Origin: Escherichia coli | GTDB lineage: Bacteria; Pseudomonadota; Gammaproteobacteria; Enterobacterales; Enterobacteriaceae | Length of the DNA: 64,000 nt | Strand: one strand, 5' to 3' | NCBI RefSeq assembly: GCF_002854065.1 | Contig: NZ_CP024147.1 | Part shown: positions 34,558 to 35,665 of the stretch, piece after piece | Layout: each line of letters starts with the position of its first letter | How positions within the stretch are numbered: position 1 is the stretch's first letter | Notes under the pieces: generated by a model | Seen by the model: only the letters and a program-made list of their open reading frames with translations | Database searches by the model: none | Told to the model about the DNA's origin: nothing | Position numbers and translations under genes: made by a program

Positions 34558-34778
34558 TGCAGGAAAGCAGGCTGGAGTTACCCAGCCTGCAGTGAAATTA
34601 AACTGTCGTCGCTTTCACTCTTTCTTTATAGATGATTTTTTTGATGCCATCGTTCTACGTAAGAGATAATAAACGTTGTTAGTTCTTTTATTGTTAAGCT
34701 TATCCCAATTATCTGGAATTCCTTATCCTGTTTTTTTGTGTGGAGTAATAATTTCTGCACATCTAACCATTATTAAAT

Positions 34779-35303
34779 TTAATAATAAGTATCGGGTTTG
34801 TTACGATAGAATTTTTCTATATCCTCAAGAATATGCTTTGCCTTATTGCCTGTGACTTTCTGAGATTCAATTATAGTATCGTTAAATTCTAAAGTTAAAG
34901 AGAACTCTTTTTTTCCGCTTTGTGTAAGTTTAACCTTATATTGATTACCAATATCAAATAAAAAGGTCCTGTAATGAGAATAATCACCTTTAACCTCCTC
35001 GGCAAAACAGCAAAGCGTGCAAATATACATAAAATCTTTCTTACCCCTGATTTTGTTAACTAAATCAATAAATGCGTGAAAAACTGTACTTGCAATAGAA
35101 CTTGATACTTCTTCTCCAGGTCTACAAAAATCTTTTGCAATTTTTAACTGTGTTTCTATATATAAAAAAAGATCTATGGCATAAGAGATATCTTTGTTAT
35201 TTAGTGCATCTAGCTCAACAGGTAAAGATGTCATTTTGTTGTTGTTCACATATGATATATTCATATCATCATCTCCATCGGGAGTAATAAAATTAGTCAC
35301 CAT
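34779..35303 (-). CDS. AT-rich orphan hypothetical protein (K-12 yjbS region)
   Basis: 174-aa ORF in a markedly AT-rich islet between tyrB and aphA; no recognisable domain by eye; start codon uncertain (in-frame ATGs at codons 1, 14, 24). Confidence 0.45.
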   Translation of the reverse strand: MVTNFITPDGDDDMNISYVNNNKMTSLPVELDALNNKDISYAIDLFLYIETQLKIAKDFCRPGEEVSSSIASTVFHAFIDLVNKIRGKKDFMYICTLCCFAEEVKGDYSHYRTFLFDIGNQYKVKLTQSGKKEFSLTLEFNDTIIESQKVTGNKAKHILEDIEKFYRNKPDTYY

Positions 35304-35665
35304 TGTAGGGTAGGGTTCTGGTCAATCAGAAATCATCTTTATAAACTTCGATTGTTTTTGTAATGCTGTATCATTAAGTTCATTAAATCGTACAGCAGAT
35401 AAATGTTCTATCAAATTTCGCTCATTTGCAGAGGATTCATCATAATAAACGAAATATTAATGTATTCTTACATCGAGCAATAACCATTTTTTTACAAAAA
35501 AACGACAGGAACGTATTTACTGGGTTAAATATAATCATCCTGCTTTTCATCACAAAAACCGCAGATAATCCTTCCTTTCCCCTGCAGCTGGCGTTATGGT
35601 CAGATGGTTTTTGCAACAAATCTCACAATAAAAAGTTTCAACATACTGACTATTTAGGGAAAAAT

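Follow-up and report, generated by a model that had tools for sequence, protein, structure and literature searches.

An intact 174-codon reading frame between tyrB and aphA of Escherichia coli, probably the full-length form of the gene annotated in K-12 as yjbS

Between tyrB and aphA, in a 64,000-nucleotide stretch of Escherichia coli DNA (contig NZ_CP024147.1 of RefSeq assembly GCF_002854065.1; this whole stretch is called the window below), lies a minus-strand open reading frame (ORF) of 174 amino acids (aa). We consider it likely that this ORF is the intact form of an orphan gene restricted to E. coli, and that the yjbS gene annotated at the same place in K-12 is its frameshifted 5' remnant. 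Judged from the alleles compared, the orphan gene appears to be partway to being lost, and a single homopolymer run has taken several independent lesions. Our best guess is that the long form of YjbS is a dispensable accessory protein being lost, and not a core function. The features needed for the argument are as follows, in window coordinates.

34779..35303, minus strand: the 174-aa ORF with an ATG start, the presumed intact long form of yjbS; its probable product is 161 aa, from the second ATG (34779..35264).
35262..35276, minus strand: the probable true start, read from the sequence, with the ATG of M14 at 35262..35264, GGAG at 35273..35276 and a spacer of 8 nt.
35180..35181, minus strand: site of an in-frame 18-bp tandem duplication (KDISYA/KDFSYA), absent here and present in many lineages, where it gives the 180/167-aa forms.
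35125, minus strand: a G, within TTTTTGTAG, that K-12 and B have lost; without it a TAG comes into frame, which gives the 67-aa YjbS.
34908..34914, minus strand: A7 homopolymer run that has been hit repeatedly by inactivating lesions; K-12, B and L011 have A6 here, L010 has A6 plus T, and O157:H7 has lost 10 bp.
34558..35528, no strand: AT-rich islet of ~0.97 kb and ~30% guanine plus cytosine (GC), the variable segment from the tyrB stop codon to the conserved aphA promoter region, delimited by composition and comparisons.

The relation to K-12 carries the main finding. For K-12 BW25113 and E. coli B, the sole RefSeq annotation in this interval is a 67-aa 'protein YjbS' (WP_001321562.1), and the original prediction was right that K-12 has only a short yjbS here. 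The K-12 gene (b4621) resembles the window ORF in its locus between tyrB and aphA, in its strand and in its start codon (M14), and the amino-acid sequences are near-identical as far as the K-12 frameshift. Over 525 bp the two alleles align with 97% nucleotide identity, and K-12 has two 1-bp deletions, namely the loss of the G at 35125 and, downstream of it, the shortening of A7 to A6, which is the second K-12 frameshift. K-12 stops after 67 codons, with the final ~20 residues out of frame, whereas the window reads on to 174/161 aa; in an orthologue test against the 67-aa reference, product length and stop codon were accordingly not the same as those of the window ORF. The alignment with its two K-12 deletions supports the earlier suggestion of a gene that is degraded or under-annotated in the reference and present here in a longer or intact form. 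It is the 67-aa reference, and not the window allele, that represents the derived state.

The distribution of alleles was surveyed in 5,426 complete E. coli genomes. The full 1.4-kb query around the locus was covered to at least 80% in 4,329 of them, a 38-nt probe inside the ORF matches 4,314, and the islet is absent from ~1,100 (~20%). An exact-match census at the TTTTTGTAG site found the intact allele in 2,753 genomes and the K-12 G-deletion allele in 1,516. At the A-run, the A6 frameshift allele is carried by 1,703 genomes and the O157:H7-type 10-bp deletion by 309, including Sakai, as an independent lesion that takes out the same A-run. Strain 07D18CPO002 (L010) has yet another lesion at the same run. 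At least ~47% of the ~4,314 carriers are lesioned, and the number of intact alleles is bounded from above only, at roughly 2,300 of 4,314. In a sample of 14 islet-carrying genomes, nine are intact (174 or 180 aa) and five are broken, all five at or beside the A7 run; more intact forms occur in further assemblies outside this sample. Conservation of the reading frame in related genomes, which had been proposed as the check on the ORF, therefore holds within E. coli, with the full-length 174/180-aa frame in 9 of 14 islet carriers, and does not extend further, as no relative was found outside the species. The A7 run has itself been altered by substitution, to AAAAAAT in L017 and L019 and to AAAAGAT in L020. 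With respect to phase variation, the run has several independent lesions, yet the alleles look lineage-fixed, and 7 nt is short for rapid switching.

The intact alleles are poorly served by current annotation. GF47 has an uninterrupted 180-aa ORF, which is the same gene with the in-frame 18-bp tandem duplication, and in RefSeq it is given an 83-aa hypothetical protein plus a 'frameshifted' pseudogene despite this intact frame. Strain 100416, isolated from human stool in the Gambia (NZ_CM128593.1), matches the 1.4-kb query with 100% identity, and the 'frameshifted' label is also found on the gene of this identical strain and on six other sampled genomes with intact ORFs. Mislabelled intact ORFs were noted at 1880..2422 in L003, in L006, L008 and L013-L016, and at 2161..2365 in L001. 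Intact 174/180-aa ORFs are called 'frameshifted' because the reference used by the pipeline is the truncated K-12 protein. Two database proteins are pieces of the same gene: WP_000275035.1 (the 83-aa hypothetical protein) results from calling an internal start in the 3' half of intact 180-aa ORFs, and ECs_5773 of O157:H7 Sakai (a 119-aa hypothetical protein) is truncated by the 10-bp deletion that removes the A-run.

The ORF itself was found exactly where it had been described, at 34779..35303 on the minus strand with an ATG start, in a spacer that had been called strongly AT-rich and about 1.1 kb long. The spacer between tyrB (33364..34557, plus strand) and aphA (35666..36379, plus strand) measures 1,108 bp (34558..35665) and has ~30% GC against ~52% in the flanks, ~22 points lower; in 200-bp windows across 34600-35600 the GC fraction is 0.285-0.34, compared with 0.45-0.58 in the flanking genes. 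GC at third codon positions is 0.25 in the ORF and 0.53 in tyrB. When the spacer was shuffled 2,000 times with its dinucleotides preserved, the longest ATG-initiated ORF had a mean of 54 aa and a maximum of 153 aa. As none of the 2,000 reached 174 aa, an ORF of this length in 30% GC DNA is not a chance feature. The start codon, which had been left uncertain, can be narrowed down. The second ATG (M14) is preceded by GGAG, while the first ATG is without a GGAG-like motif and is ATT in the variant L021. The M14 start is also the one used for K-12 yjbS, for the 161/167-aa database proteins and for the pseudo-coding sequence called by the Prokaryotic Genome Annotation Pipeline (PGAP) in the identical strain. 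Because of the GGAG at M14, its lack at the first ATG and the ATT in L021, the true product is most likely the 161-aa protein beginning at M14.

Selection on the reading frame was assessed in 12 distinct full-length intact haplotypes, using a protein-guided codon alignment and the Nei-Gojobori ratio of nonsynonymous to synonymous rates (dN/dS). The true frame, at 0.46-0.48, has the lowest dN/dS of all six; the values are 0.69 and 1.23 in the two remaining sense frames and 0.54-0.90 on the antisense strand. A binomial test for synonymous excess gave p = 0.002-0.08 in five divergent pairs. There are 83 variable sites and no stop codon among the 12 haplotypes, and the 85 observed substitutions, when placed at random, remain stop-free just 2% of the time. 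These values suggest a coding gene that was formerly under weak constraint and is perhaps still so in some lineages.

The protein is predicted to be soluble and mildly acidic, with no signal peptide or membrane segment. The structure model has a disordered N-terminus, a helical hairpin, an antiparallel sheet of four to five strands and a C-terminal helix; the C-terminal sheet-plus-helix half is modelled at a predicted local distance difference test score (pLDDT) of 78-88. Fold searches with the predicted structure gave nothing significant. The product has no significant match in Pfam, NCBIfam, PADLOC or PHROGs, in keeping with the earlier remark that it holds no recognisable motif; a match to BamG is at chance level (E = 0.032, 13 bits against a cutoff of 250). 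A word-indexed search of 5.8 billion proteins returned E. coli variants and fragments only, and an exhaustive profile search of 1.84 billion cluster representatives returned fragments of the same gene only. No phage matches were found. Among the species representatives of GTDB, which were searched with two peptide patterns only, such that a diverged relative could escape, the sole match was a contaminated contig.

Several apparent leads were followed and rejected. P0057, which carries an HlyE Pfam tag, and P0054, which is fused to a fragment of a sigma-54 regulator, are chimeric calls or assemblies that share part of the sequence. Matches labelled 'plasmid' are mislabelled chromosomes or large chromosome-like records. 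The contig assigned to 'Flavobacterium paronense CECT 8460' (L005; NZ_JAUFQN010000013.1, 9.4 kb) is E. coli contamination, 99.5% identical to K-12 over 4.2 kb with 20 gaps. AphA variants ~90% identical, which were tried as close outgroups, come from low-coverage or error-prone E. coli assemblies and yielded no genuine junction of E. albertii or E. fergusonii.

In K-12, the segment from the end of tyrB to the yjbS stop has been described, with H-NS binding taken from ChIP studies, as an H-NS-bound promoter island inside a predicted genomic island (PMC3661553), and it is among the 20 most GC-divergent 1-kb segments of that genome (PMC2575891). This segment corresponds to the degraded 3' half of the window ORF. 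The islet resembles the H-NS-silenced AT-rich islets of E. coli in its low GC, in its absence from Salmonella and from some E. coli, in the H-NS binding of its K-12 counterpart and in its rate of evolution, which is 2-5 times faster than that of the flanking core genes. Unlike typical islets of this kind, it is very small, with a single gene and no mobility signatures. The gene would be the only coding feature of a horizontally acquired islet of ~0.97 kb, which may be covered by H-NS and kept silent, as happens with other foreign DNA that is rich in AT. If the islet is silenced, cells in the laboratory would seldom make the protein; it would be under weak selection, and repeated loss via slippage at short homopolymer runs could follow.

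This view bears on the reported essentiality of yjbS. The gene was classed as 'essential by TraDIS only' (TraDIS, transposon-directed insertion-site sequencing) in K-12, where it received few insertions (PMC5821084), and work on genome recoding refers to it as essential (PMC13287592). Macrophage-adapted clones have twice yielded IS1 insertions in yjbS (PMC4999529). Essentiality of K-12 yjbS is implausible, because the gene is a frameshifted remnant in that strain, because ~20% of E. coli genomes are without the locus and because IS1 insertions are tolerated. Occlusion of AT-rich DNA by H-NS is a likelier cause of the sparse transposon insertions in yjbS.

A number of observations weigh against the reading of the ORF as a once-constrained gene in a silenced islet. 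The variable sites fall 20/29/34 on the three codon positions, with no significant skew, and the antisense frame that shares the wobble position has a dN/dS of 0.54, near that of the true frame. The mean pairwise difference of the ORF (3.8-4.3%) is about that of the adjoining non-coding islet DNA (3.7% and 5.9%); it is 0.8-1.8% in the core flanks and 1.3% in the conserved aphA upstream region. For tyrB, dN/dS is 0.03-0.14 with similar dS. Also, the Nei-Gojobori method may underestimate dN/dS when transitions dominate, and the sequences used for the stop-avoidance estimate had been chosen for being intact. The structure model as a whole is moderately confident, with a pLDDT of 64.7 and a predicted template-modelling score (pTM) of 0.60. 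The H-NS binding data apply to K-12, which is another strain than this one. Further, neither transcripts nor ribosome-profiling or proteomic data that would support the long form were found.

Three other explanations were weighed against these data. The one that survives best, although we regard it as unlikely, is that long YjbS works as a protein, with a fold new to structure databases, and is kept in about half of the carrier lineages by niche-specific or diversifying selection, e.g. as a small anti-phage or other defence factor, an anti-toxin-like protein or an orphan immunity protein; its high amino-acid divergence would then come from diversifying selection and not from decay. A frame that stays open across haplotypes up to 11% apart in nucleotides would fit such a role, as would a dN 15-20 times that of tyrB with a dS only 1-2 times higher, the loss by substitution of the A7 slippage site in L017, L019 and L020, and the better-modelled C-terminal sheet-plus-helix half (pLDDT 78-88). 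When the product was examined as a possible defence, toxin or immunity protein, no match to a known family was found in PADLOC, PHROGs, Pfam or NCBIfam, and this single-gene islet holds no linked partner. If long YjbS does work, it would have stayed hidden because the K-12, B and O157:H7 alleles are broken and RefSeq labels intact ones as pseudogenes.

It is considerably less probable that the function resides in the DNA, with the islet serving as a promoter island or a nucleation patch for H-NS that modulates aphA or keeps tyrB termination and aphA transcription apart, and with the ORF left over as an ancestral relic. The cataloguing of the K-12 segment as an H-NS-bound promoter island (PMC3661553) is compatible with this, and the few transposon insertions in yjbS (PMC5821084), although it is only a truncated remnant in K-12, fit occlusion of the DNA by protein; the ORF is also no better conserved than the non-coding islet DNA. 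However, ~20% of E. coli genomes do without the islet, Salmonella and L032 have the same tyrB and aphA without such a patch, and the aphA promoter region, whose conservation does not depend on the islet, is not part of it. A simple promoter scan gave no enrichment in the islet (7 sites against 5.5 expected), and an open frame of 174 codons in 30% GC DNA would be unexpected if the function were purely at the level of DNA. A frame open by chance in non-coding spacer DNA, which never was a gene, is a very improbable explanation of the ORF: homologues, domain matches and expression evidence were not found and the codon-position skew is weak, but no shuffle exceeded 153 aa, the frame is kept over 83 variable sites and through the in-frame 18-bp duplication, the true frame has the lowest ratio of nonsynonymous to synonymous differences (pN/pS) of the six, GGAG stands at the right distance from M14, and the predicted structure has regular secondary-structure elements (pTM 0.60). 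The preferred reading is still that of a dispensable accessory gene in the course of being lost.

The islet also informs on the history of the tyrB-aphA junction, for which three further features are needed.

35529..35665, plus strand: conserved aphA upstream region, outside the islet and common to all E. coli site types and Salmonella.
34567..34590, plus strand: inverted repeat GCAGGCTGG-AGTTAC-CCAGCCTGC, read from the sequence just 3' of the tyrB stop, the presumed tyrB terminator hairpin of this islet type.
35387..35414, minus strand: candidate sigma-70 promoter upstream of the ORF, TTGATA-16 nt-TACGAT, a match to consensus alone (9/12 positions).

The right edge of the islet was set by comparison with Salmonella, with the empty-site lineage L032 and with a genome that carries the B2-type island; on the left, homology to L032 goes no further than the tyrB stop codon. 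The Salmonella spacer between the two genes measures 186 bp and consists of a terminator hairpin with the conserved region upstream of aphA immediately after it. Three unrelated occupants of the junction are found in E. coli, namely the 0.97-kb islet, a 13.8-kb KguS/KguR island (B2/uropathogenic E. coli, UPEC) and a ~200-bp filler (L032, 3665..3865), and the three share a right boundary at ~35529. The hairpin after the tyrB stop differs in L032, the B2 type and Salmonella, each of which has its own, and L032 encodes the same AphA protein as the islet-bearing L031. Read from these comparisons, the junction, which runs from the tyrB terminator to the aphA promoter, appears to be a multi-state hotspot of recombination.

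The KguS/KguR alpha-ketoglutarate island of UPEC (c5032-c5041 in CFT073; PMC3694859), which lies at 2602..16452 in L022, occupies the same junction with the same right boundary as the islet. Its content is unrelated, with ten metabolic and regulatory genes in 13.8 kb of normal GC. The island has been described as an insertion relative to K-12 (PMC3694859). Since K-12-type genomes have their own 0.97-kb insert, it is instead an alternative occupant of the site. In the islet itself, no integrase, insertion sequence (IS) element, tRNA or flanking direct repeats were found, and two short inverted repeats are at chance level; six-frame translation gave no further coding remnants.

Other scans of the islet were uneventful. 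Rfam, tRNA-like, repeat and terminator scans gave nothing notable, and the hairpin at 34567..34590 was not flagged by the terminator scan because it is without a T tail. A simple hexamer scan, which differs from the algorithm of PMC3661553, found the 7 promoter-like sites mentioned above, against 5.5 +/- 2.9 expected from shuffles. A search for the high-affinity H-NS motif gave a single site with one mismatch, inside the ORF, and is uninformative. Two small ORFs on the same strand flank the main one, of 44 aa (34626..34760, minus strand) and 30 aa (35322..35414, minus strand); both are also present in K-12 and GF47, and they have no family match beyond a chance-level, holin-like match of the downstream 44-aa ORF (E = 0.098).

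The neighbourhood varies in other respects. In the window, aphA, which encodes a class B acid phosphatase, has an in-frame TAG at codon 180 (36203..36205), where K-12 has TGG; the gene is a pseudogene in this strain, and PGAP labels it 'internal stop' in the identical genome. In single strains the islet is lost, aphA is truncated, or both, through insertion of IS1 or IS150 together with deletion of adjoining DNA (L023, 6226..7094; L010, 1585..1966). Upstream of tyrB there is a second variable junction beside the tyrB-aphA one: alr is directly upstream in the window, K-12 and L017, and some E. coli lineages (L019, 5001..6504; L022, 1..1326) have pnuC and a gene for an AAA_28-family ATPase in that position. 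Salmonella-type contexts (L025-L027, ~5619..6399) have two extra small genes between yjbR and uvrA, of 112 aa and 147-151 aa, which are without Pfam matches and absent from the E. coli window.

The yjbS finding changes no understanding of a pathway. At the tyrB-aphA junction, the KguS/KguR virulence island is not a simple insertion into an empty K-12 site. The main value lies in the correction of annotation: K-12 yjbS is better treated as a pseudogene fragment, and, if the pattern in the sampled complete RefSeq genomes holds, the mislabelling of intact genes may affect up to ~2,300 records.
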